Virus record (IMG/VR): IMGVR_UViG_3300037424_002164
Coordinates: 23,780 to 87,779 of that record
DNA from: a virus
Lineage: Duplodnaviria; Caudoviricetes
Strand: one strand, 5' to 3'
Length of the DNA stretch: 64,000 nucleotides
This document shows, in pieces, positions 11,010-64,000 of this stretch. The number at the start of each line of letters is the position of its first letter. The first letter of the stretch is position 1. Under the pieces are notes generated by a model, which had not been told where the DNA came from, made no database searches, and saw nothing but the letters and a program-made list of their open reading frames with translations. A program made the position numbers and the translations under genes.

Positions 11010-11207
11010 ATGCCTAGCAGAAAAACATCACGTGCGGCGGCGGAGATGGCGAAGGCCCGGGCCGCCAGCATGTCTCCAGAACGACGCCGCGAAATCGCTG
11101 GCATCGCGGGCCGCTCCCGGATGACGAGGCTGACCAAGGCGCGCCGGATCGAGATTGCGAAGAAGGCGGCGGCGGCGCGGTGGGGCGTCAAGAAGACCGC
11201 GGGCTGA
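11010..11207 (+). CDS. Small basic putative DNA-binding protein (ARA..MSPERR.EIA..AA.ARW type)
   Basis: Internally duplicated motif; directly downstream of the promoter. Confidence 0.75.
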   Translation: MPSRKTSRAAAEMAKARAASMSPERRREIAGIAGRSRMTRLTKARRIEIAKKAAAARWGVKKTAG

Positions 11208-11214
11208 GGGCATC

Positions 11215-11802
11215 GTGAGACTCTGGCATCCCAACCGCCTGCAATGGGTCGTCATCTGGGCGACGTTTCTCACTGCGAGCCACCTCTCGCTGGATCTTAA
11301 GTTGTCTGATTGGTTGCCGGAATCCGGTCGGTCTTGGGGATTGTTCGCCTATTTAGATCGAGCAGACCGGACACCTAAAGGCCGCAACCATCTAAGCGTG
11401 GTAATTCTGGCGACGGGCGGCTTGATTTTGTGGCACTTTTCGGGGAGGAAGCGGCCGAAAGAGGTAGGGGCGGGATCAGCCGGAGGTTGTGCGAGTCTCC
11501 GAAAGCGCTGCGAGCTACTGTTGCAAGCAAACAAAGCTCTGGATGCGCTCCGGGATTCCGAGGAGGGTACGGCGGACACGGAAGAAATCCAACGGCTTCA
11601 GAATATCCTCGACAGCTTGACACTGCAGGCGATGAAGGAGCAGCCGCCCCCAGAGAGTGAAGCCAAAACTGGCGGGTTGTTCGGCCTCATCGTGTTGATA
11701 GGGATTTTTATGTTGCTTTGGATGGTTACGGACACACCCGAGAGGCGAACAAGCCATCCCGTCTTCGGCGCTCCCGCCTTCCGGCCCGCTCGGGGGTTTT
11801 GA
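11215..11802 (+). CDS. Three-TM membrane protein ending in FGAPAFRPARGF
   Basis: GTG start with GAGGG SD; three hydrophobic segments. Confidence 0.65.
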   Translation: MRLWHPNRLQWVVIWATFLTASHLSLDLKLSDWLPESGRSWGLFAYLDRADRTPKGRNHLSVVILATGGLILWHFSGRKRPKEVGAGSAGGCASLRKRCELLLQANKALDALRDSEEGTADTEEIQRLQNILDSLTLQAMKEQPPPESEAKTGGLFGLIVLIGIFMLLWMVTDTPERRTSHPVFGAPAFRPARGF

Positions 11803-12423: not shown

Positions 12424-12456
12424 ACAGGATGGTCCCAGTCGTAAGGAAAGGAAGCC

Positions 12457-13500
12457 ATGAATCGTTCGACGTTCTCAAGTATCGGAATCCCAGTCCTTTT
12501 GCTGTTCGTGTTCGTATCCGCTTTCCCAACCCAGGCCCAGACCTGCATCGGCGAGGTGAAGCCTCTCAAACCCATCAATTGCCAGAATGCGGCGCCGGCC
12601 TGCCTGTGCGACGAGCTGGGCCTGAACTGCCGCTGGATCTGGTCTTGCACTCCACGGGGTTACGACTCCACCACTTCACGGGCGGAGGAGCCGTCACGGC
12701 CAGCCGGAGGCATCGATGCTCGCATCCCGCTGATGGTGCAGCCGCCGCAGGCTGGCAACAGCGGCCTGGACATCCTTCTTCAATACGCGGTCGCTGAACG
12801 CCTTAGCGAACCGCGGACTCCGCCACCTCCTGTGCATCCGACAACAGGCGCAGAATGGAGGGCCGTACTGGCCGCAAAGTCCGTGTACCTGGTCAATGCC
12901 AGCCATGACGGTGGACTCTTTGAAGGTCTCTATGGGCGGCTCCAGAAATGGGGACGGTGGGGCGTGGTCCAGGACGAACGCGACGCCGACCTCATCCTGG
13001 CACTGTCGGATGGCTACGAGTTCAACAAGCCGCGCTATCTGGCGGTTCTGCACCCGAGGACCAGGGCCCGGCTGTTTTTCGTCTCATGCGAGCGCCGAGT
13101 CACGGCGGGTTACACCGCCGGCGTGCTGGTCAACCGGCTGCGCAAGCGAATCGAGGCAATTAATAAACGCCCCATCGTTCCGGTGGCCGACAAGGATCTG
13201 GCGGCAGTCGGGACGAACGCTGCCCCTCCGGTTCCTGAGCGTTGGGCTTCAATGGTCGCGGTCGCGCGGGAGCGTTACGGGGATTGGGATGCGGCAACCA
13301 AGAGTGCCGAGACAGAGAGGCTGGCCATCACACCTGCCATGACGCAGGCCGTTTTCGGGTCGCAACTCGGCGCGGATTTGGTCTACTGGCTCGCGAAGCA
13401 CCCCGAGGAATGCCGGCGGATCGCGGCGTTGTCTCCAACTTCCGCCGCCATGGAGTTGGGCAGGATCGAGGAGCGACTTGCGGCAGTGGTAGGGAAGTAG
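12457..13500 (+). CDS. Secreted chimeric protein: signal peptide, 6-Cys domain, central domain, scaffold-like C-terminal domain
   Basis: AAGGAAAGG SD; MNRSTFSSIGIPVLLLFVFVSAFPTQA leader; TPAM/HPEEC/ELGRIE motifs shared with the scaffold. Confidence 0.8.
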   Translation: MNRSTFSSIGIPVLLLFVFVSAFPTQAQTCIGEVKPLKPINCQNAAPACLCDELGLNCRWIWSCTPRGYDSTTSRAEEPSRPAGGIDARIPLMVQPPQAGNSGLDILLQYAVAERLSEPRTPPPPVHPTTGAEWRAVLAAKSVYLVNASHDGGLFEGLYGRLQKWGRWGVVQDERDADLILALSDGYEFNKPRYLAVLHPRTRARLFFVSCERRVTAGYTAGVLVNRLRKRIEAINKRPIVPVADKDLAAVGTNAAPPVPERWASMVAVARERYGDWDAATKSAETERLAITPAMTQAVFGSQLGADLVYWLAKHPEECRRIAALSPTSAAMELGRIEERLAAVVGK

Positions 13501-19669: not shown

Positions 19670-20028
19670 TCCAGCTCCAGGTAGCTGGTCACCCGCCACC
19701 CGTCGTAGTCCGGCCAGCGGCCCTGCGGATCGTGGAACTGCCCGTTCTCGTAGTAGACCCAGTGCCAGCGCCGGTTGCCGTTTTGCCTCATCACCAGCAG
19801 GGCGCGCCGGGGGTACTCCGGCCGGGCCCGTGAGATGGCATGGCAGCGGTCTACGGACCTGACACCCAGCCGGCGCAGAGCGGCGATGATCTCGCGGGTG
19901 CTGGTGCCCCCACGCCGGCCGTGCCCCACCGCCTCAATCGCCTTCGTGAGCGACACGCCGGCGGCCATGGCCACGCAACACTGGCCGCACAGGCTGCTGT
20001 CGATGGGCTGGCGCACGAGAACGGTCAC
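19666..20028 (-). CDS. Peptidase C39-like (papain-fold) protein
   Basis: Q...LCG.CC.AM, GTS, HWV, DP (Cys-His-Asp). Confidence 0.7.
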   Translation of the reverse strand: MTVLVRQPIDSSLCGQCCVAMAAGVSLTKAIEAVGHGRRGGTSTREIIAALRRLGVRSVDRCHAISRARPEYPRRALLVMRQNGNRRWHWVYYENGQFHDPQGRWPDYDGWRVTSYLELD

Positions 20029-20504
20029 GAGCTCTCCTGGATGTAGCCCGCCGGCGGGTTCTGGTTCAGCCAGATAGCGGTTTCGGCCTCCCTGCGGCCG
20101 TCGAGCACGTGCGGAACGCCGCCCGCCCAGTGCCAGCGCTTGATCTCGGAGGGAACCGCCGCCTTGTCTCCGGCGTTGAGCTTCCGGAGCAGGGTCGAGG
20201 CTCGCAGCGCGCTGGTTCCTACGTTATAGGCGAACGAGACCAGCGCATCGTACTCGTGCTGCTCGAGCGGGACAGCCACGATTCCGTTTACCACCTTGGC
20301 TACCGCCCGCACTTTGACACGCAGGCGGTGCGCCGCCTGTTGTTTCGTAAACACCCGATCGCGGTAGAACTCGATTTCCTCCGCGGTGAGCTGCGTTCCG
20401 TAGCCGATCGCCCGCTTCGAGGAGCCGGGCGGGTCCGGGTACATCCTGGCCCGGAAGCCCTCGGCGAGCTTCAGGAAGGAGATGATGTTCTCGGACGGAA
20501 TCAT
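20025..20504 (-). CDS. Endolysin, GH24 phage lysozyme family
   Basis: EG....Y.D, IGYG, DALVSFAYNVG, STLLRKLNAGD, W..AGG..L.GRREAE. Confidence 0.92.
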   Translation of the reverse strand: MIPSENIISFLKLAEGFRARMYPDPPGSSKRAIGYGTQLTAEEIEFYRDRVFTKQQAAHRLRVKVRAVAKVVNGIVAVPLEQHEYDALVSFAYNVGTSALRASTLLRKLNAGDKAAVPSEIKRWHWAGGVPHVLDGRREAETAIWLNQNPPAGYIQESS

Positions 20505-20546
20505 GGTTTTGGGGGACAAGCAAAGACGGTAAAGGACGGTACAAAC

Positions 20547-23500
20547 TCAGAAGCCGGCGGCTGGCTTGAAGGCTGGAGTGCCGAAGGTCTTACGTTTGGT
20601 CGTTCGTTGTCGCTCCAGGGCTTTGGCGCGCCTGTCCTGGTTGCTGGCTCTCGCGACTAAGCCCGGAGCGAACAGATCCAGGGATTGGCGGAGGTATTTG
20701 TTGCCCTGGGAGTACTTTTCCGCCGGGTCCAGGAAGCCGGTAGACTCGCCGAGGGTCTGGCCTACGTCGCCAAAGAAGCTGTTCAGCTCCATGCCGGCGG
20801 CGCGCATCCGCGCCCCCATCGTCGGCCATCCCGCGGGCGTATTGGGATCGACTGACGGGAAGAACTGCGGGTTCAGCCGGCCTGCTTGATCGCGGAAACT
20901 GGTCAGGTAGGTCTCTTTGAGGAAGACCCCGGTGAATACGGAGCGGGGCACCGGGCCGAGGCCCGGGTGGACGAGTGCGTTCAGGCTGTCGCGCTGGGCC
21001 GCCTCGAGTTGCTGCCCGAAATTCCCTCCCAACTGACGTGTTTCGAATGCCCCCGTAAGCCCCAGGGCGCGGGCGCCACGGCCGACCAAGGGGTTAAAGG
21101 CATTGAAGCTCAAATAGCCAGTTTCCGGTCCGTCGCCCCAGAGCGCCCGGCCGAGCTTGGAGTAGCGGTACTTATCGAGAGGGCCATTGCCCCCGCCCAC
21201 CGGAAGCTGAAATAGCTTGGCGCGCCTGTCTTCGGTGGGATATTTGCCCGTGAGCAGCTTCGAGGCGATGACCCAGAACGCGAGCAGCCCGAGCGCGCCC
21301 GCGGTTAACAGGTACATCAGGCGCAGCGCCCGCCAGCCTTTGGGCATCGGCCCCAATCCGGTCCAGGCGTTGACGCCGTTCGCCAGCGCAGTCGATCCGG
21401 CCGTGAAGAACGGAGCGATGCCCCACTCCTTCAAGGCGCGCTCGATCTCGCTCCACAACTCCGGCGTGTAGTTGCCGAGCTGGTTCACAAAGAGAGACCG
21501 CTCTCCGGCTTGGCTTTCCTCGGGGAAGAGCGCCTTGGCAATGTCCCACATCACGATACGCGCCCGCGCATCGAGTCCCTTCGGGCCGTAGAGCATCGGC
21601 CCCAGCGTGAGGGGGAAGTGTTTCAGCGTGGCTCCAGTGGCTTCGGCGTACTTGCGGCTGTAGGTCTGCGATCCATACTTGGAGGGCACTCCTCCGATAT
21701 CGGCCACTTCCAGCAGCTTTTCCAGATTTTCCGGCGTTGTGGGGTCGGTCTGGAGCAGCACCTTCCACACCACCGCCAAGGACTTGACCAGCGGCACGGA
21801 CACCGCTTTGTCGGCGAGGGTAGGACCCAGAAACGGCGTGTTCGAAACGAGCGCGCCCAGCACGTTGCGTGCGTGAAACACCATATCCAGGGGGCCGATC
21901 AGCGAGAGGGTGTTCAGGGTTCGGACGATTTTCCGCGACGGATCGGCCGAGTGAGGTTGGTGCTCGAGGATCGGCTTGAGTTCGCGATGCAGCCACGCCG
22001 GCAAGATGTCCATGCGGGTCTTCAGGGGAATGGTCTTCTTATCCTTGATAAGAGTTCGCGCTTCGGAAACCGGCACCTGAACGCCCGTGTACTCGACGCC
22101 ATTCCAGACGATGGTGTCCTGCCCTTGCTCAGCCGGCTGGAGCAGCCCTTCCTCTTCTAGCACCTTCAACAGGGCAGCCCGGTCGTTGGCGCGAATGGCG
22201 CGGCTCAGCCGTTCCTGGAAGGCTTCCATCCCGACGTCGTAGCCTTCCGCCAGGCCGGTCGCGAATTTGTTGGCGGCGTTTTTCGGCTTCTTGTAGGTCA
22301 CGCGCGAACCGAAAAACCCGGGATTGCGGTCGAACGGAATCAAGGGATAGTAGGTATCGAGCGGCCCCAGAGAGTCAGAAAACACACCTTCATTCAGGGC
22401 GTGGTTCTGCGCCATCGGCGCTTCGACCAGGCGCTTGTAGGCCCGCAAAGCGTCCTGCACTTGCGGATCTGAAGTCACCCTGTCGTACCAGCGCGGCTCC
22501 ATCACTTCGGCAACGTTCGCCGCGGCGTCGGAGAAGGTCTGCCCCAGAAACTCCCGCAGGGTGTCCCAGTCCGCTGCTTCATCCAGGGCCGCCGCGGTTT
22601 CAACTACATCCTGCGGGATCCCGCGCTTCCCCTGAATCGCGCTCAGCAGACCGGCAAACTCCTCTTTGAACACTTCCTGGAGCTGGGTGTCCTCCATTGT
22701 CGAGATTTGTTCGGCGAATCGTTCCCAGCGTTCCCGGATACCGCGGAGCCTCGACTCGATCAGCGCCAGGCGCAACTCGGGCCAGGTGAAATCGGAGCCT
22801 TTGAGCGCATCGAGGATTGTTGGAACAGCCGCGCGCAGGATGACCCTGGACTTGGCGTTGGATGAGGCGGTGCGGAGGGCTTCCCGGTGCACGCGGGCGC
22901 TGGCGCGACGGGTCTGGCCGAGATTGCGGCGATAACGGGTTTCCAGTGGTCCGAACACCCCGCGCAAGCCGCCGTAGTTTACTTCGGCGCTTTCCTCCCC
23001 GAATCTCTCGGACAGCCATTCGCCGATGGAAGCCAGGTCCATGTCCCCGGCTTCGCCGCGCCAGAAGGATTCAACCGGCCTCACCTTGCGCAGGCTCCAG
23101 TCGTTCGCCTCCAGATCCTCGGTGTCGTAGACCATGCTCCGGGCTGCCGTATCGACGTAGAGCGAGTCCGCACCCTTGGCGGCCCGCTCCACGGCCTGGC
23201 GGAGCCGGGAGGGATCGACCGCCTCGAGGCCCTGGATCTCGATCCCATTGCCGCGCGTGCGGATGTAGCCCGAGCGAAGGAGCTGGTCCTTATTCTTGCC
23301 GCGGAAACGGCTCAGATTCTGGTGCTCGGCCTCGGCGCCGAGGGGGATCACTTCGCCTTCCGGAGTGACCCAGAAGCCAGCGGTGCCGCGGCGGGGGGCT
23401 ACTGCTTGGGTGGCGGGGAGGTCGGCGGCTTGGCTTCCTCGGGCGGGAACACCTTGTCGAACTCCTCCGAGTAGTTCCCCCGGAGCTTCGCGCGCGCCAG

Positions 23501-26500
23501 GCGCATAGCCCGGCTGGTAGCCCTGGCGTCGAGCTTCGGCGGCTTTGGTTCGGGTTTCATCGAGGACTCCATTCAATTGTGACGCAATCCGCGGCAGCCG
23601 GGAGACAATTTCTCCCCCGTGCCGCTCGATCAGATAATCCAGATACCGGCTGAAGAGCTGCTTGGCCTCGTCGCGCGAAATGCCCATGCGGGCCCAGCCG
23701 CGCGGCCCTTGCGCCAGGTGCGCGCCGATCTCGGCGGCCATGGCATGCATCTCGTACTCGCTGGTGATCCGCGGGTAGCCCGTTTCGGTGAGTCCCCGAA
23801 GCGCCCGGCGGGCGAGCTGGTCTTGGAGGAATGACTCGGCGTCAATGTGTTCGACGCCAGCCTTCCCCTCGCCGCCTGCCTCCTGTGTCTGGAACCAGTG
23901 GAAGCGCTCGTGCTTGATGCGCTCCCGAAGCCTCTGCCAACTGTCTCCCGGGCGGTGGCCGACGATCAGCAGGGGCCGGAAGTCCGACACTCCCGCTTCC
24001 AGCTCCGCGGCGATCGCTTCAATCTTCGCGCGCGCCTCGGGCGAGACGTTCGGTGCGACTTGGCGCAGCGTGTCCACCATCCGCAGGACGCTCGTGGTGG
24101 TGAAGTGCATCCCGGCCCAGGTTTGCTGGTGTTTGGGAAGCACCGCTTTGAGCAGGTTGAGCGCGTTCTGGTCGGCCCACAGGAAGCGGGGCTCGGTTTG
24201 ATCGTGCAGGAATAGCTTCGGATCGGCGGCCGCCAGCTTTTCGAATTGCGGATAGTAGGTGGGCGGGTGCTCCGGGAGGGAGTCTTCCTCCAGGGAGGCG
24301 AGATCGCCCTGGGGTGGATTCTCCGCCGGGGGATTTTGGGTCGCGTCCACCTTCGCTCTTAGCCGTTCGAGCGATTCCTCTGGGGTCTCGTCCGGCGCCT
24401 CGAATTTCTCCTGGAACCGCTCGAATTTCTCCTTGAATCCCTTGGGCATCACGGCCCAGTTCCAGTCGAGTGAAGCCTCAGCCTGGCGCGCGAACGCAAC
24501 CGCGTGGTAGTCCTGGTGGAAAAAGTTTCCCATCCGCTTGCCGCTGGGAAGGTGGATGACCTCGTACGACTTACCCTTGGTCACTTCCCTGACCCCAAGG
24601 TACTTGCCGACGACGCGCACCTGGACCGGGTACTTGCCGTAGTCGCTCGCTGCAAAGATCCGCCGGGACGGGAACCAGTCCGCATGCATCGAGGTGGTTG
24701 GATCCAGGCGCATCGGCCGCAGGGGATCCCGCCGGTTCGCCTCTTGTTCCTCGTCCGCGCCGAGCGCTTGCCGGTCATTCGCTTCCGCGCCGAGCTGGTC
24801 GGATAGTTCCTGCTGCCGGCGGAGCATCGTGCGGAGCTTCTCTTCACCCTTGAACGGCTGGCCAAGCCTGCTTTCGAGCTCCACCTGCTGTTTCTCGAGT
24901 CGGCGCAGTTGATCCTTACCGTGTTGCAGGCTCTCTTCGAAGCCGCGCAGATGGTTGTCGGCCGATGCGATGGTGCCGGCGGGGTTGGCGTCATAGTTGA
25001 CGCTGACCCGGTAGGTGCCGGAAGCCGCCCGCAAACGAAGTTGCGGCGCACTGAAGTACTTGAGCTCAAAGCGGCTCTCCATCTTGTCCCATTCCACATG
25101 GACCTGAGTCGCCCGGGAAAGGTCCAATTCCTTCAGACCAAAGGCATCTCGTTTATGGATGTCGTGCCAGTTTTGTTGGAATCCTTGTGCCGTTACCTGG
25201 TAGTACAGCCACTTGTTGTCCGGCGTCATCTCGCGAGCGAAAAGGAGGTTGGCGCCGACACTCTGGTCGGTCTTGGAATGCCTGACCCCAAGTTCGGCGA
25301 AATGTGGCGTGGCCTCGAGCGGAATGCCGTGGTACGTCGTTTCGATTGACTGCGGTTCGGTGATGACTCCGACCTTTTTCAGGCGCTCGATGAGGATCGG
25401 GGCGCCCTCGGCCCGAATTTCCTTCTCCTCGTAGCGCTTCCCGTCGATGACCAGCGCACTGTCGGAGTTCCGCGCGGCAATGTCGGTGGTGAAATTCTCG
25501 ACCCGCTGTCTCGCTGCTTTGGTCTCCTCCGGCAGGGTTGCGAGGGTTTGGGAGATCGTGGCCTGTTCGGTCAGCCAGGTTCCGCGCATGATCTCCGCCT
25601 TCAACACTTCCTGGTCGAGGATGATCTTCTCCCGCACCAGCGGGTTGCCGGAGGATACGGCCTTCGCCTGCTCGTAGCTCATCACCGCGGGCGAAAGCTC
25701 CTCGATCCGGCGTACTGCCGGATCTCCGTTCATGAACTGCTGGATCGGTTTGGCCTTCGCCGAAACCGTCTCCCACATGAAGGCGTCGAACGTTCCTTCC
25801 GTCATGTAGCGGTAGATGCGGACCGGGATCTTGTGCTCGTCCCAGAGTTTGTTGCCCTGGCGTTTGATCCGTCCGTCGCGCTGCTCGATGTCGCGCGGGC
25901 GCCACGGAGCGTCCAGATGGTGGTTGGCGATCAGCCGTTCCTGCACGTTCATGCCCGCGCCCATCTTTTCGGTCGATCCGATCAAAACGCGCACGTCTCC
26001 GCGATTCACCCGCTCGTAAAGCAGGAGCTTCTGTATGTCGGTCTTGGCGTCATGGATGAAGGCAACCTGTTCCGGCTTGAAGCCTCGCGCGATCAGCTTC
26101 TGCCTGATCTGGCCGTAGACCGTGAATATCTCCCGCTGCTCGTCGGTGGTCACGACTTCTTCGGTGACTTCCTCCTCCTTTTCGTCGTAGAGCGTCTCCT
26201 CTTGGTCCGCGACGTTGGCCACTTCCTCTGCGGCTGCCGGTTTCGCTCGGGTGACTTTCTCCGACTTCGGGGTGGAGAGATCCAGGAAGACGAGTTGCGC
26301 GGCGCGATACTGGCCGAATTCCTTGTTGATGGCGACGATGTTGTCGATCGCTTTCGCGACTTTGCTGACCGGCTCCTCTTCGGCCAGCGGATCGACCAGC
26401 CGCATATCGAGCGAGGCCTTGCGCCCGTCGCTCGAGAGTTTCAGCATGTTGTCGATCGAGGGGTCCTTGATAACGCCGTTGCGGATGTCGTCGGCACGCT

Positions 26501-29500
26501 TGCCAATCTCCAACACGTAGGCCTTCTGCGCCGCCGATGCCGGCGCGACGACGTCGATCGGGCCGCCCTGGTAGACGGCGGGGGTGGGCAGGTTGAGCTT
26601 TTCCGCGGTCTGGATATCGGCCGCCAGCCGGAACATATTCATCAGCTCCGGAGCGTTGTGAAACTCCGCGAACCGGCTGCGCGAAATGAAGCGGCCGCCT
26701 TCAGGGGCTACCTCCATCTGGGTGCGGACTTTTCCGAACGTCTTCGCCCAGGCGTCGAACTGGTCCAGGCCCTCGCGCTCGAGATACTGGGGAATGAGGT
26801 ACCGCATCATCGTCCAGATTTCGGCGATGCTGTTCGACACCGGGGTGCCGGTGGCAAACACCAGGCCGCGATCGCCGCCGTGCAACTGGGAGACGTACCG
26901 GGTTTTGAGAAGCATGTCGGTGGCGCGATCGGCGTCGGAGTTCGGCAAGCCGGCCACGCGGTCCATCATGGTCAGGTAGCCCAGGTTCTTGAAGAGATCC
27001 GCTTCGTCCACGAAGAGCCAGTCCACGCCCAGCTCCTCAAAGGTCACCCCGGTATCCTTCTTTTCCCGCTTCGTTCGTTTCTCGATCTTCGCCTCGAGTT
27101 GCTTCTTGCGCCGGACGAGCTGCTTCACCGTGGGGTCTCGGCCCGCTTCGCCCTTCTGCTTGCCCTTGCTGAAGGTTTCAATGGCCGCCTCGAGTTCCGC
27201 GACCTGCGCATCCATGAATTCCTTGAATGTCTCGTCCTTCACCGCGAGTAGCTGGAAGTGCGTGTGCCCGACGATCACGGCATCATAGTTTCCGGTGGCG
27301 ATCCGGCTCATGAGCTTCCGGCGGTTCTGCTTGTCAAAGTCCTTTTTCGTCGGCACCAGAATCTGGGCGCCCGGGTAGGCCAGCAGGAAGGCGTCTTTCC
27401 ATTGCCCAACCAGGTGATTTGGCACTGTAATCATCGGCTTGCGGGCGAGACCCAGGCGGCGCAGCTCCATGGCCGCCATGGTGATTTCGAGCGTCTTGCC
27501 GGAGCCAACCACGTGAGCGTAAAGCGTGTTGCCGCTTTGTATCGTTCGCCATACGGCTGTCTTCTGGTGGGGATCGGGGTCCTGATTGCGCAGCCAGGTC
27601 CGGTTCAGCCCTGGAAACGTCTGGTGGGAACCATCGAACTCGCGCAGTTTGAGATTGTTGCGTTCTTCGTTGTACTTGCCTTTCAGCCGGTTCGCTCGTT
27701 TGGAATCGGACCAGAGCCATTTGCTGAACTGATCGACAAGCGCCCGTTGCTTTTCCACTGCCTCGATGGTGGCCTCGGCATTTTTCACCATCACTGTTGT
27801 CGGGTAGCCGCCGGCGGTATACCCCACCTCCTCATCGCGGGCCACGGGCATCTTCCCGTTGATGGCGAACTCCAGCAACTCCATGCCGGAGAAATACGCG
27901 GTGCCGTAGTCCACGCTGTTGGCGACGCCTTTGTCGCTGAAGGTGTATTGCGGGCGGATCGCGAAGCTGCCGGTGAGCGGGACGTACTTCACCAGATCGG
28001 TGGCGCGCGCCTCGGACTCCTCGACCCGGAGCACTTCCCGCAGGAAGTCGGAGTAATCGGTGTCCGGGATCCATGTCGCCCCGAGCGGCGCATCGATGTC
28101 GCCGATGTCGAGGTCCCGCGGCTGGATTGCTTTCAGTGCTTCGACGTTGGGCAGGAATTGGGGGTCCTCTCCGGCGGCAAACTCAGCGTCCCGCAGTTTC
28201 TTGCGCACGTTGCCGGAGAGGTATTCGTCCCTGGTTTCCCAGCTCTTCGTGATGGGGTTCCGGTAGATTTTGCCGCCCAGTTCCTGGCGCAGCTCCTCCG
28301 GCGTGCGGCCGGTCAACTCCTGCATCCGGCTCCAGTCGAGCCGCCCGAGATCGTTGAGCGAGACCGCCAGCGCCTCGGCGCCGGTTTCGACGCTGGTGAT
28401 GCGCGGCGGTTTCTGAATCGTCCGCTCGCGGAACATCGCCCGCTTGGTGGCGGTCTTGGTGTCTTTGTTGTAGTCCTCGAGTGCGGTGAGCAGCGGCCAG
28501 TCCGGATCCTCCCCAAAGACCAGGGAATTGCCGTTGCCATTCACCGGGCCGTGCCGTTTGACGAAGTGGTCGTAAACTCGGTTCAGGGCTTTGCGGGCGG
28601 CGAGGATCTCTTTCTCTTCGAATTCGTGGCGCTGGGTTCGGATGACCTCCCGCGCGGCTCCGCGCAACTCGATCAAGGCTTTGGCGCGATCGAGCTTCTT
28701 TCCCTTGAGAGGCAGTGGCCGGAAATAGGCGCCCTCCCGCCGGACCAGCGCGCCGTCGACGTAGGCGATCTGGCCGTCCTTCATGAACTGCGCGTCGGGG
28801 TAGTTTTCAACCAGGTTGTCGCGCGCGCCGGAAGGCTGCTGCTCCCAGGACGGGATAACGCCCTCGGGCAGGCGGGCGAGCATCTTGTCCAGCTTGTCGA
28901 GCGAGAATTCGCCAAACAGCTCGGGGTAGCCGCGGCGATACTGCGTGCCGGCGCCCATCTTGCCCATCATCATTTCAGGGTGCCGGTGGAAGTACTCGTT
29001 GACGTCCACCTTGAACCCGTCGTCCGTGTCCAGAGTCCGTGACTCGACCCACTTCTCGTCGGAAACGGGGACGCCTTCGGGAATCCGCCGGCGTAACGCG
29101 ATGATGTCAACCGTCACCGAGGTACCGGCGTTGGCCAGGAAGGTGTCGCGCGGCAGCCGGATCGCTCCCAGCAGCTCGGCCCGCTCGTTCACCCAGCGGC
29201 GGAAGGCCGGAGCTTTGGAATCCATCGTGTAGCGGGACGTGATGACGAGCATCACTCCGCCCGGGCGCAACTTCTCGACCGATTTGGCGATGAAGTAGTT
29301 GTGGATGTTCTCCGTCAGGTACGGAGTGCGCCGGAACGCCGCATCGTTGACTCCGACGTTGCCAAAGGGCACATTGCCGATCACCAGGTCGAAGTAGCCG
29401 TCCGGCAGGTTCGTTTCCTGGTAGGGCTTGATGACGATGTTCGAGCCAGGGTAAAGCGCCCGCGCCATGGCGCCGGTGAGAAGATCCATCTCGACGCCGG

Positions 29501-32500
29501 TCCGCCCGGTGCCGGGCGTCAGATCCTCCGGCATCATCATGAAGAAATTGCCGCTGCCCATCCCGGGCTCGAGCAGGGAGCCGCCCGCGCGGAATCCGAG
29601 GCGGCGCGCGGCATCCCACATGGTTCGGGCCAAGTCCCGGCGGGTGTAGTGAGCGTTGATGGTGGATTCCCTAGCGGCCTCGAATTCCTCCGGCGTCAAC
29701 AGGCCCTCAAGCTCCTCGCGGATCCCGGCCCACTCGCGCTTGTAGCCGAAAATGCCGTTGGCCAGCTCCGAGTCGCCCCAGCCGACGTACTTGGCGATCG
29801 CCTGCTGCTCTTCGATGGTGGGGGCGCGGTTCTCCGCCTGAACCTGCTTGACGATACGAATGGCCGCGAGGTTGTTCTGGGCTTTGGTGCGGGCGCCGCC
29901 CCGTTCAGCCTGGGCGGCCTGTTCAGGGGTTAGGCGGAAGTCTCCATCGATAGACCGAGGTTCGACGGCGTCAACTCGAGGTTGGGCTGCTCCTCTTCCT
30001 CCGGGAGGCGATACCACTGGTGGTCGGCCAGTTCGACTACCTTCTCCCAGCTCAGGCCCTGCTGCGTCAGGCTGACCCGTAGCTCCACGGTCAGAAACGC
30101 CGCCACGAGCACCAGGCGGTAGAGCACTTTCGCCTTCTCCATCTCCGCGCACATCTTCGGGCGGAACTCCTGCCAGTGTTTCAGGACCGCCTGGGCGAAG
30201 GGCGTCTCCTCCACCTCTTTGTGGGCGGCCGGCTCCGGCAGTTTCCGTGCCTGTTCGAGGGTGAGTTCGGCGGTCTCCGGCATCGGGTTGCTCCGCCTCC
30301 ATTATGCTCTTTTTTTCGGACTCGGGAGCCGTGATTTGATCGGGTTCAGCGGCTTCGGGTACCAAGGGTTCTACCGCTGCTTCAGGGGACGGAAGCCCTG
30401 CTTCCTTCCCCTCGACCCCTTCCTTCCTTTCGGACAGCGGCTTGGCCGTGTACTCCTCGTCGTCCCAGAAGTAGTTGGGGGCCTGGTTTTCGAGGCGGGA
30501 TTCGGCGGCATCGGCCGCCATCCAGCGGGACATCAGTGAATCGCCCGCGTGGTCGGCTTCTTCCTTGGTCGCGAAGAACTGGCCGTTGGGCGTCCACTCG
30601 TTCTTGACCTTGACGTAGACGCGGTAGCTTTTCGCGGGCGCCTTTACCGACTGTTCGGGGCCGCCCGTGTCCTTCCGGAGATCCCGGGCATCAAACGGCA
30701 CGTATTCGATGGTCTGTGTGGCTACATCAGGTGCACCTTCACCAGCGGGATGCGCGCGGACACGGTACTCGGTCTCGCTCACCGACGTGATGTAGCCGTA
30801 CTTCTCCTGGCCGCTCGCGTGTGTCCAACGGATGGTGTCTCCCTGGGAGAATCGGCGGGGGCCGGGCTCTGGGCGAGGGGTAGCCGGTGCCTCGGGTGCT
30901 TTCTTTTCCTGCGCTGCCTTCAGCGCCTGGGTGCCGGCAGGGTTGCGAGCGAAGGATATATTTCCCCCTTCCTCTGGCCCGCGGCGAATCAAACCCAAAC
31001 GCAGCAGTTGGGCGAGTCCGTTATTGAAGGCATCCCGCGTGAGGTTTTCAATATCGGAGGCAACCGATTCTTCAAGGCTGCCGCTTTGAGTGACGCGGTT
31101 GGTTTCGAGGTTTCTGATGATGGAACGCTCGATAACACTAAGCTGAGCGGCTTCAGGGGCACTTGGCGTCTCTGTCGTGGGCTGCCCATGGGGTGTCGCA
31201 ACGATCTTCCGGCTGATCCGCTGCACATCAGGGAGCTTGTCGGCGTCGATGATCCACGCCTTCTGTTCTCCGTTCCACCTTCCTCCCAGCTTCTTGATCT
31301 GATTCCGGTGGACGTAGGTGTCGCCGGTGAGGGCGTACTGCCCTGCCTCGGGTGTTTCTTTCCTTGTTGACTCGCCCGCCGGGAGCGCTTCGGGGGCCGG
31401 TTGACCGCTCGCCATCCGGGGTTCCGTCTCCGTCTTGGCGGACGTACCCGGGCGTGCCGGGGGTTGAGCGGGTTTTTCTCCCTGTCCTGCCGCCTCCTGC
31501 TTCGGGGCTTCAGTCTTCGCCTTCTCCTCGACCTTCTCAACCCTGCTCACGTGGACCGGACGGAACATCCCGAACCTCTGATCCGGCTCCTCACCGATGA
31601 ATACAGTAAAGCCCTCAACGCGACTGACGTAACCTTCCCGAGTCTTTCCTTCCTTGTCGGTCCAGCGGACGTGGTCATTCTTCTGGAACCGCAACTCCGG
31701 AGACTTCAATTCCTGAACGACACCGCCGCCCGGAAGTTTGTGGGTGACAACCGGGTCTGGAGCGGGCGCAGGCTTGGCAGGCTCAGCCGGTGAGCCCTTC
31801 AACTCGATCTCCGTCTGCTTCCCGCTCTTGTCGGAGAACACGATGCGGTCGAGCGTGATCTCCTGGCCGGTGATCCCGGGGATTTCCTTGCCGGTGTACT
31901 GCTTGCCTTTGCCGTCTCTCAGGTAGGCGATGGTCGCGTGCGGCTTATAGCCCGGGTGCGTCTCGGTGTTCGGCAGCGCGTCTGCGATCTTCTCGTTGAG
32001 CCGCGCCAGGTCCGGAGACTCGACGTCCACCTTGAGTACGTCGCCGTTGTCGGTGCCGGCGAAGATCGAGGTTTTACCGAGCTTCAGTTTAACCGGCGGC
32101 TCATTGGCGATCAGTTTGCGAACGGCTTCCGGCTCGCCGCCGTGCAGGCCGTACTTGATGGTGATGTGCGGCTGGGTCTCGCGACCCTTCGCGGCTGATT
32201 CCCCACCGTACTTGGCGCCCGCTTCAGATGCCAGGTGCTCATCCGGGATGGTTTCGCCAAACGCAAGGATCCTTGCGGCAATCGGCCCTTGCAGGTTGAC
32301 TTGCGTGGACGCATAGTCGAACTGTTCCTTTTCCTCCGGCTTCACGCCCCTCATCCGGTCGGTTTCGCCCTCGATCCAGTTGCTCGCGTCGTCGTACAGC
32401 TTCTGGGCGTGGGGTACGATCCAGTCTCCGAACTCCTCGGAGAGTGCCGTGGTGAACCGGCCCATGCGGTGGTGGCCGGCGAGAATCTTGTGGGCCGCAA

Positions 32501-35500
32501 CCGTCTTCAGGTCCGGCCATAGTTCCTTGAGATCCTCGGGGATCCCCGTGTCGGCCGGCTCCTCGATCGAGGCCAGGTCGCCCTCGGTCCCACGGCGCCG
32601 CTTCAGCGCTTCTTTGATGCGCGCGCTCGCGGCCGCGGCGTCTTTTTCGAGGCGCGTGCGCAACTGCTCGGAGATTTCCTGGTCGGAGAGCTTGACGGCG
32701 GGTTTTTCTGGTTCTGTCCGGGGCTTCCCGGCGGGCGCAGGTTTTCCTAGTTGACTAGGAATTTCCTGTTTGGCTGCTGCTGGCGGGGACGCAACCGCTG
32801 GTTCGCCGCTTGCGGCTCCGAAAGCAGACTTCCCCGCGGCCCCTTCTTCCTTTGCCGCAAACCCCACCCGCTCCACCGTCAGCTTGCCCGGCTCGGCGTC
32901 CCTGGCTTGCTCCTTGATCGCTCCGCGCACCCGCTCGCCATAGGCCCGGACTTCGGCTTCCTCGAGCCCGGTTGCCTTGGCCACAAACGCCACGTAGTCG
33001 GCGTCCCGCTTCGAAGGGGTCTTTTGTGCGGTGATGTAGGCGGCCCGGTCGACGTCGCTGGCGAATTCGATCTCGAAGGACTTGTTGCCGTAGTTGTAGC
33101 GCGGCATCGCGCCGGAGAGATGGCGGGGCAGCTTGCGCTCAGGCTCCTGGGCTACGGGGGTGACTTCGTCCGGATCGAGTGTGACGACGCCGGCGGCCGC
33201 GGGCGGGGCGGCTCTCTGTCGGTAGTCTTCGACCCATTTGGAGAATTCGCGTTTGTCGTCCATGCTGGGGATGCCCAGCTTGTTGCGGACTACCCGGACC
33301 AGTCGGGCTCGGTCCATTCCCTCGAATCCGGCGTCTCCTACGTTTTTGAGCTTGTCTCCAAGCCGTTCGGCAACCTGTTTTGCCGTCAGTTCACTGGCGC
33401 TCAGCCGTTCTACTTCGTCAACAATGCCAAGCCGTTGGGCCAGTTCAAAATCCCGGTCAATCGCCTCTTGGAGCCACGTCTTCTCGCCAGTCTGGATCGG
33501 CACCGGCTTCCCCGCCGCCTCAGCCAGCTTCTTGCGCCCGCCTTCGACCCGCGCCCGGAATTCCTGGAGCATCGCCTTGTCGCGCCCCGCTTCGACCCCC
33601 TCGGTTGCCGTCTCTGGCTCGGCAGCGGAAGGTTTGGCAGGCGGCGCGAATGGTTCATCCTTCCAGTACGTGGGAGCTGTCACCAGCTCGATACGCTCTG
33701 CGCCTGCGGCTTGCGCCTCCTGAAGTGTCCGGTAGTACGGACTCCACTCGCCCTTGATCTCGCCCTGGTATACCTTCCCTTCCGGAGCGACAGCCGGAGT
33801 CGTGGAGGAAACAGGGGGTGCGGGGGGAGAAACCAGGGGTTTCGCCCCTTGCGGCTGCGGCTTCCCTTGCGCGTCGAGTACCCCCTCCTGTTTCATCCTC
33901 CGGACAAGCGCCGCCCCCTGGTGCCGGGGAATCTTTAACTCCGTCCACAGCGCCTTGTCGGTGACGGGCCCGGTGGCCGCCCGGGCAAACTCAACGGCTT
34001 TCTGGTACGACTGCTCGGCTGCTTCCGTTTCCGGGCTGACCTGGGATGGGGTGGCAGGAGGCTCCGCAACCTGTTGAGGCGGCGTGACCGGCTTTTGGGG
34101 CGGCTGGGTAACGGCTGGTTGCCCGGTATCACCTGATACCGGAGGCGCCAGGAATTGCTGTTCGAAGTCGGCCAGACCCAGAGTGCCCCGGATCTTGTTG
34201 CCGGCTTTCATCTCCTTCTCGAAGAAGACCCGGCCCTTTTTGACCTCGAGCACGCGGGTGACCCCCGAGGGGGTCTCGAAGGTTGCGCCTTTGGTGATTT
34301 CGGGGGCGACGGCTTCTGATTCCGCCTGGGCCGGCCGCTCGGCCTGTGGAAGCTGGGTCCCTTCGCGTCCGAGTTTCGCCCGCTGCTTCTGGATGTCCGA
34401 GATCCGGGAGTCGGCCTCTTTCATGACCGCTTCGGCGTAGATGTCCCGGGTTCCTTCGTTGCGCGCCTGATCGGCGATGGATTGGGCCTCAGCGCGGTCC
34501 GCTACGGCTTGCGAGTAGTCCAGGTCCAGCCGCGTCGCGGTTTCTTCCGGCGTTCCTGCTCCGCCGCGCTGTTCAATGCGCGTGCGAATCGTCTCGGCGC
34601 TCCCGGCCGCAAGCCGTTTGCCGGTGGCCTCGTCGATGAGTACCCATTGCGGCCGGCCCCGGCCCTGCGCTCCAGCCGGTGTCGTCGCGCCCTCAAAGTG
34701 GATGCGGACTGCTGTGCCGTTCAGATCGAGCTTGATGTCCTCGCCGAAGATCTTGCCCCAATCCTCGGTGGCGATCTTCTGAGCTTGCTCGCTCCAGGCT
34801 TGCGCCGCCAGACGCTGGCCGCTCTTCGTAAGCGCGGCCGTTTCCTCGACGGCGGTTTTCAGGCGCACCTGGCGGGGCGCGCCGCGCGCGGGGATCTCTC
34901 CGACCGGATATGCCTCTGCCGCGGTACGCCCCGCCTTTACCGCTCCCGCGGCGGCGAGCGCCGCTATGGCCGCGCTGCCGAGCGCTGCCGCTCCGTGTTC
35001 CGTGGCGGCAATGTAGTCTCCCCGCTTCGCGGCTTTCCAGGCCGCGTCTCCCTCCAGAATCGTCCCATTGCCGGCGAGCACGGCGAACCCGGCCGGGACC
35101 GCCGCCATGGTGGCGACGTCAGCCGCCTTCATGACGACCGGGGAGCCTTTCAGCAACTTCACGGCGACGGGAAGGTTGACGACTCCGCGCAGGAGATTGG
35201 TCGCGCCCGCGCCCAGCGCCACCATACCGGCGCTTTCCATGCTGGTCAGAGGTTCGACGGCACCCGTCAGGCCGCGCTCTGCTGCGATGAGTCCTTCGAG
35301 CGGATTCCCCTGCGCCTCCTCGGCCGTGGGCAGCAGCAGCGACGGCCGCACGATCGGTTCTCCCATCGGCCGCGCGTACTTGTTGGTGATGTTGGTCTCG
35401 ACGAAGTGTTTGCCGAATCGTTTCAGCCCTTCCGGGATGGTGTATTCCGGGCGAATCGAAACCTCAACTCCCGGCACCCCCGGCGTTCCAGTCCGCTCCG

Positions 35501-37298: not shown

Positions 37299-38714
37299 TT
37301 AGATCGGCTCGGCCTGGATCTTGCCGTTTACGACGCTCTTGACCCGGTAGAGTTTGCCGCCGGGTCCACGGACGGTCTGCCCCTCGGCGTAGGTCACGCC
37401 TTTGACCGTCCATTTCTTGGCGGTTTTCGGTTGACCGGGCGCAGCCGGAGCGGAGGGTGCGGGTTTCGCCGGCGGTTGTGAAGCCGGCTGTCCGTTCGTG
37501 GGTTTCGCGGTGGCTGGCATCGCAGCCGCCGGAGGAATCACTGGCTGGGGCGGCGCACCCTCACTTACCTTCGAGAGCGGAACGCCCTGGGGCGCAGAGA
37601 ACTCCCCGACCTTGGCCTTTTCCCGGATCTTCTTCTGGGCGGCCTGGAGGTCGGCAACCTGCTTCGTTGTTTCGTCTAGCTGCTGCTGGAACACGCGCTG
37701 CAACTCGGGGGTGGCGATGTATTCCTTGACCTCTTTGCCTTCCGGGTCGAGGGCATTGAAGCTCCTGGCTTCCTTGCCTTTCGCCTCGGCGTTCAGCTTC
37801 ATCAGGCGCCCGAGGCGTTCCCGCTTGCGATGCAACTCCTGTTCTTTTCCCTGGAGCCCGTCGTGCTCCTTCATCGCGTCGTCGAGTTCCTTCTTGCCGG
37901 CCTGTGACTTCGTCCAGTCGAAGCGCTCGCCGGCAAGCGTACCCTCTCCTCCCGCCTTCGACTTCTTGATGGGCTGCCCGGAGGGAGTTTTGGCCTCCAC
38001 GGAGGTTCCGGTGGCCGGGCTTACCAGGTACGTGCCCTCCTCGGTGGACATCTCGAAGGGCCTTCCGCCCCGCACTTCCTCGTCGGACTTCGCCTTTACG
38101 CCGGGCATTTCGGCTTGGTGCTTCTCGGTCTTCTGCGAGCTTTCCAGGTCCTTGATGCCCGCTTCGTGGATCTGCACCGCTGTCATGGCCTGCTTCGCAA
38201 TCTGTCCGATGGCAGCCTGTGTCTGCTCGTTCCAGCCCTTCGCGCGCCATTGCTCGGCCTGCTCGGGGGTGATGAGCTGTTTCTGGACAGCGCTGTCGAT
38301 GCCACGCAAGTATGAGGGCTCGTCGGTGACCGAGGCGGCGATCGAACCCAGTAGCTCCGCTTTCGCCTTCGCATTCTCGATTCCAGCCTTGCCCAGCGCC
38401 AGATTCTCTTTGCGCGAATCATCCACGGTCTTGATGATGGCCAGTTGCCGTTTCTGCGACACCTTGCCGGCCACCTTTTCGGGGAGTTTGTACAGGTCAC
38501 CCTTTACTTCTTCGAACGCCTGGCGCACAACTTCGTCGTCGGCCTCGTCCTGCTTGCGCTCGCGCAGCTTCTGCTCGTGCTCCTGGAACTGGATCTCGTT
38601 CAGCTTGTTCCGGTCGAGCAGGGCCTTGAAGGACACCGCCCGGCCATAGGCCTCCATGGGGTCTGGGACCTGGATCGGACGCACTTGCAGGGGAATACTG
38701 GGATCAATGGGCAT
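37299..38714 (-). CDS. Ejection/DNA transfer protein (P22 gp20-like position)
   Basis: Helical Q/K/E-rich protein between the gp7-like and gp16-like genes. Confidence 0.7.
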   Translation of the reverse strand: MPIDPSIPLQVRPIQVPDPMEAYGRAVSFKALLDRNKLNEIQFQEHEQKLRERKQDEADDEVVRQAFEEVKGDLYKLPEKVAGKVSQKRQLAIIKTVDDSRKENLALGKAGIENAKAKAELLGSIAASVTDEPSYLRGIDSAVQKQLITPEQAEQWRAKGWNEQTQAAIGQIAKQAMTAVQIHEAGIKDLESSQKTEKHQAEMPGVKAKSDEEVRGGRPFEMSTEEGTYLVSPATGTSVEAKTPSGQPIKKSKAGGEGTLAGERFDWTKSQAGKKELDDAMKEHDGLQGKEQELHRKRERLGRLMKLNAEAKGKEARSFNALDPEGKEVKEYIATPELQRVFQQQLDETTKQVADLQAAQKKIREKAKVGEFSAPQGVPLSKVSEGAPPQPVIPPAAAMPATAKPTNGQPASQPPAKPAPSAPAAPGQPKTAKKWTVKGVTYAEGQTVRGPGGKLYRVKSVVNGKIQAEPI

Positions 38715-38758: not shown

Positions 38759-39010
38759 ATGGAGCGGCTCGTCGATTACCAGGGCAATCCCGTCGTCCGT
38801 GACGGCCCCTGCCCGGAATGCGGGGGAAACTGCGCTCCTGAGTGCGGGATGCATCCGGCGGGCTGCACTTTTGGGGGGTTCTCCTGCGGATATTGGCTTG
38901 CAACCGACGACTGTCCGCTCGATCACCCGAACATTCACTGCCACGGTCCCGGCGATCCTTGTCCGCTCGATGATACGTCGGCCTTCTGGAGGGGAACAAA
39001 GCCTCAGTAG
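38759..39010 (+). CDS. Small Cys/His-rich protein (9 Cys, 4 His), antisense to the late operon
   Basis: Fills the gap between 38714 and 39004; CPEC, CAPEC. Confidence 0.45.
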   Translation: MERLVDYQGNPVVRDGPCPECGGNCAPECGMHPAGCTFGGFSCGYWLATDDCPLDHPNIHCHGPGDPCPLDDTSAFWRGTKPQ

Positions 39011-40275: not shown

Positions 40276-40340
40276 GTTGCACCTCATCCGTATGGGTTTC
40301 CGAAAGTAGTCGCTCTCCGGGATCGGAACCTTGGGGCTCA

Positions 40341-63408: not shown

Positions 63409-64000
63409 TCACCCGTTGGGGTGATCTTTGCGCCACTGCGCGTACTCGGCAGGCGACATCTCGCCCGGGGACTTGATGGGAGTTCCGGACTTCGTGCCTG
63501 GAGGCCGCACCGGTGGCGGCGCGCCGCTCGGTTTGGGGGGTTTCGGGGTTTCAGGAGTTGCGGGAACTTCGGGCGTAACAGGTGCGCTGAGTGCGGCTTC
63601 GATCCGCCCGATTTCTCGGGCGGCGGCGCGCACGGCGTCCCCCACCTGCTTGGGAGTGGGCTTCTCCGGAACGGAGGTCGCGGCTTCGATCCTCTTGCAT
63701 TCCTCCGGATGGGAGGCCAGATAGTAGAGGATCTCGGGGCCTTGCTCGGACTCGAAGATTTCCTGGTGCATCGCCGGTGTGGCGACGAGGCCGTTCTGCT
63801 CGGCCTGCCTGGTCATGTCGTCGTAGTCCGGATGGGCCGCCTTGGCGGTCTCGACCTTGTCGAGCCACGCTTCGACCACGGGCTGTTGCTCGCGCCGCAG
63901 ACGCTCCTCCTCGTCTTTCGCCTGGATCTGCGCCTTGAGGGCGTCGATCTCGGCGCGAAGAGGCGCGTTGGCGCGCTTGGCGGTCCATTCCTGGTGAGCC
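63409..64000 (-). CDS. Capsid scaffolding protein, 5' part beyond the window edge
   Basis: Upstream of the coat gene; HPDY, GPEILYYLASHP, EIGRIEA, C-terminal MS.AEY..WR coat-binding motif. Confidence 0.85.
   Translation of the reverse strand, partial: AHQEWTAKRANAPLRAEIDALKAQIQAKDEEERLRREQQPVVEAWLDKVETAKAAHPDYDDMTRQAEQNGLVATPAMHQEIFESEQGPEILYYLASHPEECKRIEAATSVPEKPTPKQVGDAVRAAAREIGRIEAALSAPVTPEVPATPETPKPPKPSGAPPPVRPPGTKSGTPIKSPGEMSPAEYAQWRKDHPNG

Follow-up and report, generated by a model that had tools for sequence, protein, structure and literature searches.

Why would a bacteriophage place a copy of part of its own head scaffold behind a signal for export from the cytoplasm? This question is raised by the open reading frame (ORF) 12457-13500 in a 64,000-nucleotide stretch of viral DNA (the window), which comprises bases 23780-87779 of the virus record IMGVR_UViG_3300037424_002164. 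The record is complete, with a length of 87,779 bp and 127-bp terminal repeats, and encodes a P22-type portal (PF16510, expectation value E 1e-171) as well as a P22-type coat protein (62067-63293; PF11651, E 1.6e-43). The product of the ORF is referred to as P0001, and its modules are numbered by its residues. An earlier note, made from the letters of the window, had described P0001 as a secreted chimera of a capsid-scaffold domain and a motif from the start of a gp20-like protein, and had regarded the scaffold part as either a co-opted decoy or a domesticated domain. The evidence strongly indicates that the ORF is a genuine accessory gene and that the phage carrying it is complete and has head genes of the P22 type. 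With a probability of roughly 0.4, P0001 may act in the periplasm to block the entry of related phages by engaging their ejection proteins.

A head-scaffold domain in a predicted envelope protein

The scaffold gene of the phage lies between the P22-type portal and coat genes, at 63409-63999 on the minus strand of the window, and wraps around the end of the record, the joined gene encoding 357 amino acids (aa). The earlier note had aligned the C-terminus of P0001 with this scaffold, and the relationship is borne out both by BLASTP (residues 258-345, 42% identity over 102 columns, E 4e-20) and by structure prediction. The scaffold-like domain is modelled as six helices with a predicted local distance difference test score (pLDDT) of 92-97, and superimposes at 1.6 Å over 83 columns on predicted scaffold structures. 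Furthermore, P0001 (1.7e-10) and the phage's own scaffold (1.8e-14) both match phrog_8865, a 'head scaffolding protein', the structure matches of the domain in BFVD are scaffolding proteins, and a search with the family profile retrieves P22 gp8, a scaffolding protein of solved structure, at residues 142-248 (E 0.0014). A Foldseek search of the PDB with the full model returned no match for the helical C-terminal domain, and the link to gp8 is one of sequence profile only. The exported and the true-scaffold copies are conserved at the same positions (r = 0.77 between their conservation profiles). A profile search of 1.8 billion proteins gave 5,846 matches at E <=0.001, and the matches listed are mostly 260-380 aa long with the domain in a central position.

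In gp8, the 'base' domain, through which the base dimers of the scaffold lattice are formed, has its second part at residues 163-245, and the coat-binding 'hook' occupies residues 268-303; the same study concludes that the P22 ejection proteins assemble together with the scaffold and are docked on its lattice (PMC12005531). Compared with the P22-type scaffolds (gp8; PF09306; phrog_8865, phrog_648), P0001 is homologous to the central base domain in residues 256-345, carries in addition a signal peptide and two envelope-type domains, and lacks the N-terminal part of the scaffold; nothing corresponding to the gp8 'column' helix was found. P0001 ends 2 residues past the base domain and has no coat-binding helix-turn-helix hook, whereas the phage's own scaffold continues for ~55 residues beyond this domain with a Pro/Ala-rich linker and a conserved end. 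The gene is encoded outside the portal-coat interval, in an accessory operon ~50 kb from the portal-scaffold-coat block, which lies at the opposite end of the record, and the phage has a separate, complete scaffold gene. Because the coat-binding end is missing, P0001 should have no scaffold function, and a role as a working scaffold is excluded by the lack of the hook, the place of the gene and the predicted export of the protein. The domain description in the earlier note stands for the Cys domain, the motif and the scaffold domain; it had missed an envelope-type α/β module, and also that the scaffold part corresponds to the base domain and not to the coat-binding end.

P0001 begins with a basic n-region (MNR), followed by a hydrophobic core of ~15 residues and an A-x-A that precedes a Gln, and this signal-peptide character is kept, despite diverged sequence, across all family members and in stand-alone Cys peptides. 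Hence the Sec signal and the six-Cys domain that had been proposed for the chimera are supported by the conservation of the n-region, the core, the A-x-A and the Cys pattern in the family, and P0001 is very probably a protein exported to the cell envelope. It is not a lipoprotein, since the A-Q-T before C30 does not fit a lipobox, while the A-x-A and the Gln fit signal peptidase I.

The six-Cys mini-domain that follows is predicted to form a β hairpin (pLDDT 83-89), and four of its Cys and two Trp residues are invariant or nearly so in the family alignment. C42 and C64 are both present in 21 sequences and both absent in 5, and neither occurs singly. Loss only as a pair is the pattern expected of a disulfide pair, which would place the folding of this domain outside the cytoplasm. 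P0001 has the signal peptide and the pattern C..P.KP..(C)..C.C....C.W.W(C) that define the six-Cys family. A DNA-pattern scan revealed that the domain is also encoded alone, in secreted-peptide precursors of 59-78 aa from Acidobacteriota, Myxococcota, Burkholderiales and Caulobacteraceae assemblies, viral contigs and ~50 metagenome contigs. No name for the domain was found in Pfam, NCBIfam or the ESM Atlas. The small secreted six-Cys peptides (L130:6844-7050, L155:1794-1994, L094:4109-4330, L089:12538-12744 and ~60 further loci) are an undescribed family that is present in Acidobacteriota, other diderm bacteria and phage contigs. In a Korobacteraceae assembly (L134:1689-2573, minus strand), an exported Clp-type protease (PF00574, E 8e-22) carries the six-Cys domain at its C-terminal end.

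The middle of P0001 is occupied by the α/β domain (pLDDT 86; predicted template modelling score, pTM, 0.78). Its nearest Foldseek neighbour is PelC (E 1.2e-4), followed by LptE, TolB-N and small lipoproteins (E 1e-4 to 1e-2), and VIA-align places CsgG first (Z 9.4; root-mean-square deviation 2.9, 98 residues), ahead of a minor lipoprotein (Z 8.4), TraT (Z 8.3), TolB (Z 7.9) and PelC (Z 7.8). All of the close structural neighbours are periplasmic or outer-membrane-associated, with a sequence identity of 10-18%, and the matches at Z 7-9 may reflect a common fold only. As modelled, the domain has the same α/β fold as the CsgG/PelC/LptE/TolB-N/LpoB-type domains and as TraT, which acts in plasmid surface exclusion; most of the CsgG/PelC/LptE-type proteins are lipoproteins, whereas P0001 has no lipobox. 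The domain is also found alone in signal-peptide proteins (P0005, P0015, P0016, P0019 and others). The module appears to be an insertion in the P0001 lineage, because the homologue P0004 and most family members lack it. A repeat, (K/N)AG(L/I)..(E/D).(I/V)...(I/V), was noticed beside the α/β domain in secreted proteins (P0005, P0047, P0053, P0073, P0033), and in P0033 it stands beside a scaffold-like domain; its distribution suggests a pool of shuffled exported modules.

Ejection-protein echoes and the P0001 family

Between the Cys domain and the α/β domain, P0001 contains a stretch that the earlier note had compared with the start of the gp20-like protein, a protein of 471 aa. The direct comparison of IDARIPLMVQPPQ in P0001 with IDPSIPLQVRPIQ in the 471-aa protein is not significant (E 0.24), but a motif hidden Markov model (HMM) built from six family members, with P0001 left out, ranks the N-terminus of the 471-aa protein 1st among the 1,251 six-frame ORFs of the genome (E 3.1e-5). 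Since this independent profile picks out the same N-terminus, the motif homology is regarded as real, and a chance resemblance is ruled out by the profile tests. The stretch after the Cys domain is kept across the family, as illustrated by GIDTSIYRNLQPIQTPD, RIDPLIPLMVQPVPQ and GIDSTIPLGVKPPQIENP. The motif occurs in variants of the types IPL.V.P and [IV]Y..[LI].P, and in the one available pair of chimera and ejection protein from a single genome the variants agree. P0001 contains the motif consensus, M-x-I-D-x-S-I-x-L-x-x-x-P-x-Q, but at an internal position behind the Cys domain, and the rest of the ejection protein is absent.

Homologues of the 471-aa protein begin in the same way (P0155, MPIDTSIYRNIEPVQMPDPME; P0156, MIDPSIPLSGRQVQISPLE), as do proteins of ~500-530 aa in six viral contigs, whose genes lie ~7 kb downstream of that for the scaffold, one of these proteins being clipped by the contig end. 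The motif start is also present on a protein of a 4.5-kb metagenome contig (L237, E 4e-8), and the 'putative internal protein B' of Xanthomonas phage PBR31 starts with MPIDASIPLQIQ (E 5e-6). The PBR31 protein carries a transglycosylase-type domain, which is its periplasm-acting part. The 471-aa gene sits directly after the gene for a phrog_598 'DNA ejection' protein, and because of this position and the N-terminal motif shared with PBR31 internal protein B, the 471-aa protein is indeed of the ejection type that the gp20-like label had implied, with the motif as its conserved N-terminus. By this comparison, P0001 shares one segment with 'internal protein B' and is not a member of that family. 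A tblastn search of cultured phages with the 471-aa protein gave no match, and word searches led to 3 proteins with the whole protein and to 1 when limited by region.

The public gene call of the 471-aa protein (P0154, 452 aa) begins 19 codons late, so that the motif is lost (window 38658-38714, minus strand). A GAGGTG lies 8 nt before the upstream ATG at 38714, and the homologues retain the motif. In addition, a second stretch detected by the HMM, GIDSAVQKQLITPEQ, is a weaker copy of the motif inside the 471-aa protein, at residues ~137-153 (window 38256-38306, minus strand).

A further echo of the virion proteins is found in the operon of P0001, which runs rightward and encodes, besides P0001, a 3-helix membrane protein (11155-11802) and proteins of 205 and 74 aa. 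The membrane protein ends with FGAPAFRPARGF (11764-11802, plus strand), and a giant protein of 5,551 aa, encoded next to the ejection genes, ends with FGTPAFKPAAGF (20547-20585, minus strand). Among 27,764 six-frame ORFs from the genome and the fetched loci, these are the only two ORF ends that match the pattern. The membrane protein may be a second mimic in the same operon, which fits an entry-blocking role for P0001.

P0001 is not alone in joining the scaffold domain to a signal peptide or a membrane anchor: at least 15 diverged proteins do so, and among the best 150 representatives of the profile search at least 13 are of this kind. The Cys domain is joined to a coiled coil in P0007, P0008, P0010, P0018, P0021, P0027, P0033, P0045 and P0059, other exported N-terminal modules precede the scaffold domain in P0042 and P0048, P0009 has a membrane anchor, and further fused genes are present in L126, L259 and L267. 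In P0012 and L162, signal, Cys domain and motif are retained, but the protein ends in a different domain and has no scaffold domain. P0001 belongs to an undescribed family; apart from the scaffold match in PHROGs, no described exclusion or defence family was found for it in Pfam, PHROGs, PADLOC or NCBIfam.

In a tree of the scaffold domain, which is based on 83 columns and weakly resolved, the exported copies are spread over at least four positions. One of them, P0008, clusters with the scaffold of this phage, with a Shimodaira-Hasegawa-like approximate likelihood ratio (SH-aLRT) of 94, and has an insertion of similar sequence at the same place as in that scaffold. Because the exported copies are scattered and P0008 has this affinity, the scaffold part appears to have been acquired more than once. 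The Cys at an 'EC' position is enriched in the exported copies (10/16 vs 17/127, Fisher p 4e-5), a count that ignores the relatedness of the sequences. A scaffold search of viral contigs with alignment A2 returned only true scaffolds, a search of viral contigs for related loci with alignment A1 found no relative, and a scaffold of this type elsewhere in the assembly was found in none of the five assemblies with a family member, which are incomplete.

In L275, the two halves of the fusion are adjacent genes, each with its own signal peptide, the scaffold base-like gene being followed by the gene for a secreted Cys peptide. The island that carries them (L275:6063-12991) is satellite-like; it comprises an integrase, HTH_17, a 744-aa AAA_25 protein, an Sf6-type small terminase and, at its end beside host genes, the split-fusion genes. 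In L126, the fused gene is flanked by host genes on one side and by DnaB-N/Prim-Pol (primase/helicase) genes on the other, and 401 sampled genomes from the phylum of L126 gave 3 matches. Such islands are known reservoirs of anti-phage genes (PMC9122126).

Possible entry exclusion and competing explanations

Taken together, the context and composition of P0001 favour an anti-phage role at the envelope. After ejection, P22-type ejection proteins rebuild a conduit across the periplasm, and because they also dock on the scaffold during assembly, P0001 would be well placed to bind them as they arrive. According to this model, P0001 would sit in the periplasm, perhaps under the outer membrane, where its copies of the scaffold domain and of the motif would engage ejection proteins delivered by infecting phages of its own type. 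The ejection proteins would either be captured, or P0001 would co-assemble with them as a dead-end subunit; in both cases the DNA conduit would fail, a form of superinfection exclusion in which the assembly partners of the phage itself are mimicked. Such an activity fits the cargo position of relatives in satellite-like or integrative elements, the repeated uptake of the scaffold part and the second mimic in the operon. More broadly, and somewhat more tentatively, phages and satellites of several bacterial phyla may export periplasmic 'assembly-partner mimics', composed of a scaffold base domain and terminal peptides of ejection proteins, as a class of entry-exclusion factors that would imitate the docking contacts of the virion and so recapture or poison the ejection proteins of infecting phages of like type.

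Superinfection exclusion by envelope-located proteins is well known from T4 Imm and Spackle, HK97 gp15 and TP-J34 Ltp, the last of which is likewise exported and is considered to target an injected virion protein. In P22, SieA prevents entry, and the mutations that escape it map to the ejection proteins gp16 and gp20 (PMC10883804). Like SieA, P0001 is a phage-borne accessory protein with a predicted envelope location, and ejection proteins are its plausible target. However, P0001 has no sequence relation to SieA, Imm, Spackle, gp15 or Ltp, and, in contrast to SieA, it is not an integral inner-membrane protein. A further difference is that P0001 combines copies of assembly and ejection components of its own phage, a construction that has not been described for the known exclusion proteins.

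Several observations weigh against an entry-blocking role. The motif region (residues 73-101) is predicted to be disordered (pLDDT <50) and is not docked on the scaffold-like domain in the full-length model; linear binding motifs are usually disordered, and it is the undocked state that counts against the proposal. The motif HMM has no match in the L275 protein, and the group of P0018, P0027 and P0059 has, by eye, at most a remnant of the motif. In addition, the neighbours of the stand-alone Cys peptides are varied and include ordinary host genes, which means that the Cys domain is not phage-specific. The base domain is a dimerising module, and its reuse could be purely architectural. PADLOC, NCBIfam and Pfam have no match for P0001 as a defence factor. 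Finally, no tyrosine integrase was found among the larger ORFs scanned, only a serine recombinase of 197 aa, which weakens the case for expression of P0001 from a prophage.

Some of these points lead to the main alternative, which is somewhat less likely, namely that P0001 is an envelope accessory protein without contact to virions, in which the scaffold base domain only dimerises or multimerises the protein and the activity resides in the Cys and CsgG/PelC-like domains, for example in the masking of a surface receptor, a change to an envelope machine or a contribution to host fitness. In P22 the base domain dimerises (PMC12005531), and the scaffold domain is also found behind several exported N-terminal modules that are not related to one another (P0042, P0048 and the anchored P0009). 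The Cys domain occurs alone among host genes as well as on the exported Clp-type protease of L134, proteins with folds akin to that of the middle domain (CsgG, PelC, TraT) assemble into rings beneath the outer membrane, and the enriched 'EC' Cys could give disulfide-linked dimers. Dimerisation, however, leaves unexplained why an ejection motif is present in the same protein, and also in P0012 and L162, which have no scaffold domain. It likewise does not account for the second mimic at the end of the 11155-11802 product or for the re-acquisition of scaffold domains from the same phage lineage, and the exported copies keep surface positions of true scaffolds beyond the needs of a generic dimer.

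Satellites encode scaffold-like, size-redirecting proteins such as SaPI CpmB and P4 Sid. An analogous function, in which P0001 or a non-exported fraction of it would act in the cytoplasm as a poison scaffold by entering the scaffold assemblies of competing or helper phages, in the manner of these capsid-redirecting proteins, would be consistent with the retained base-dimer positions and with the relative in the satellite-like L275 island, which has a small terminase gene. P0001 and CpmB or Sid are alike in being mobile-element proteins that are related to, or act on, the scaffold system of a phage or helper. CpmB and Sid, however, act on procapsids in the cytoplasm and have no signal peptide, whereas the export features are conserved in the P0001 family, with a signal peptide or membrane anchor in every member. 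Furthermore, the paired loss of Cys points to disulfides, which form outside the cytoplasm, the fold of the middle domain is of the envelope type, the partner gene in L275 itself encodes a secreted peptide, and the assembly of the phage's own heads would suffer as well; a poison scaffold is therefore improbable. The earlier note had also allowed for a recombination relic, and the pieces that make up P0001 do recur elsewhere in the genome, a mosaic such as illegitimate recombination could yield. A functionless relic or a mis-called ORF is nevertheless highly improbable, given the good ribosome-binding site, the intact frame, the coding-like composition of all modules and the confident models for three of them. 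The relic is rejected above all because many diverged homologues, with identities of 57%, 40% and less, share the architecture, and every module has invariant residues.

An entry-blocking role of P0001 would be of interest beyond this phage. The family bears on the recruitment of ejection proteins into procapsids and the rebuilding of the periplasmic conduit in P22- and T7-like phages, and the natural fusion of an ejection N-terminal peptide with a scaffold base domain is a candidate for the unmapped contact between scaffold and ejection proteins. If the role is correct, P0001 would represent a new design principle of superinfection exclusion, in which a phage's own docking parts are copied and placed at the envelope, and would add an anti-phage family that PADLOC, Pfam and NCBIfam lack. 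It would also explain why scaffold-like domains recur in the secreted proteins of mobile elements.

Feature coordinates and neighbouring genes

Table 1. Features of the P0001 gene and of its counterparts elsewhere in the window, with the evidence on which each is based.
Feature	Position in window	Strand	Basis
Whole gene (P0001), 347 codons + stop	12457..13500	+	Full-length homologues at 57% and 40% identity; coding-like G+C content at codon positions 1, 2 and 3 (GC1/GC2/GC3) in all modules
Ribosome-binding site AAGGAAAGGAAG, 3 nt ahead of ATG at 12457	12443..12454	+	Sequence reading
Signal peptide, residues 1-27, predicted signal peptidase I site after T-Q-A, before Gln	12457..12537	+	Sequence features
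Six-Cys mini-domain, residues 28-66 (C30, C42, C49, C51, C58, C64; W60, W62)	12538..12654	+	Alignments, model
Ejection-protein N-terminal motif copy GGIDARIPLMVQPPQ (residues 84-98) and helix (103-116)	12706..12804	+	HMM tests
Envelope-type α/β domain, residues ~130-238	12844..13170	+	Structure model
Scaffold 'base'-domain copy, residues 256-345	13222..13491	+	BLASTP, PHROGs, profile, model
N-terminal motif of the 471-aa ejection protein ('internal protein B'; gene 37299-38714)	38595..38711	-	HMM, homologues
Matching domain of the phage's own head scaffolding gene	63577..63882	-	BLASTP

The structural genes run leftward and lead to the phrog_598 'DNA ejection' protein, which has 364 aa, the 471-aa protein, the giant 5,551-aa protein (20547-37202) and a lysozyme (20025-20519). 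P0001 was also considered as a spanin, which is ruled out by its build and by its position, as it is not near the lysozyme gene. The host of the phage is probably an Acidobacteriota bacterium, because the nearest relatives of several phage proteins are in Acidobacteriota assemblies.

Two minor observations concern other ejection and structural genes. The end of the 364-aa ejection protein (NPKIPVPQSNYF, window 40341-40380) is echoed by SPKVPIPESDYF (~40330-40370) in the upstream part of an overlapping ORF (39004-40668, minus strand), which looks like a duplicated gene junction. In PBR31, a 'putative structural protein' (L165, 24674-25483) has a signal-peptide-like N-terminus, MKKLIALFSLFCTSAFGA.

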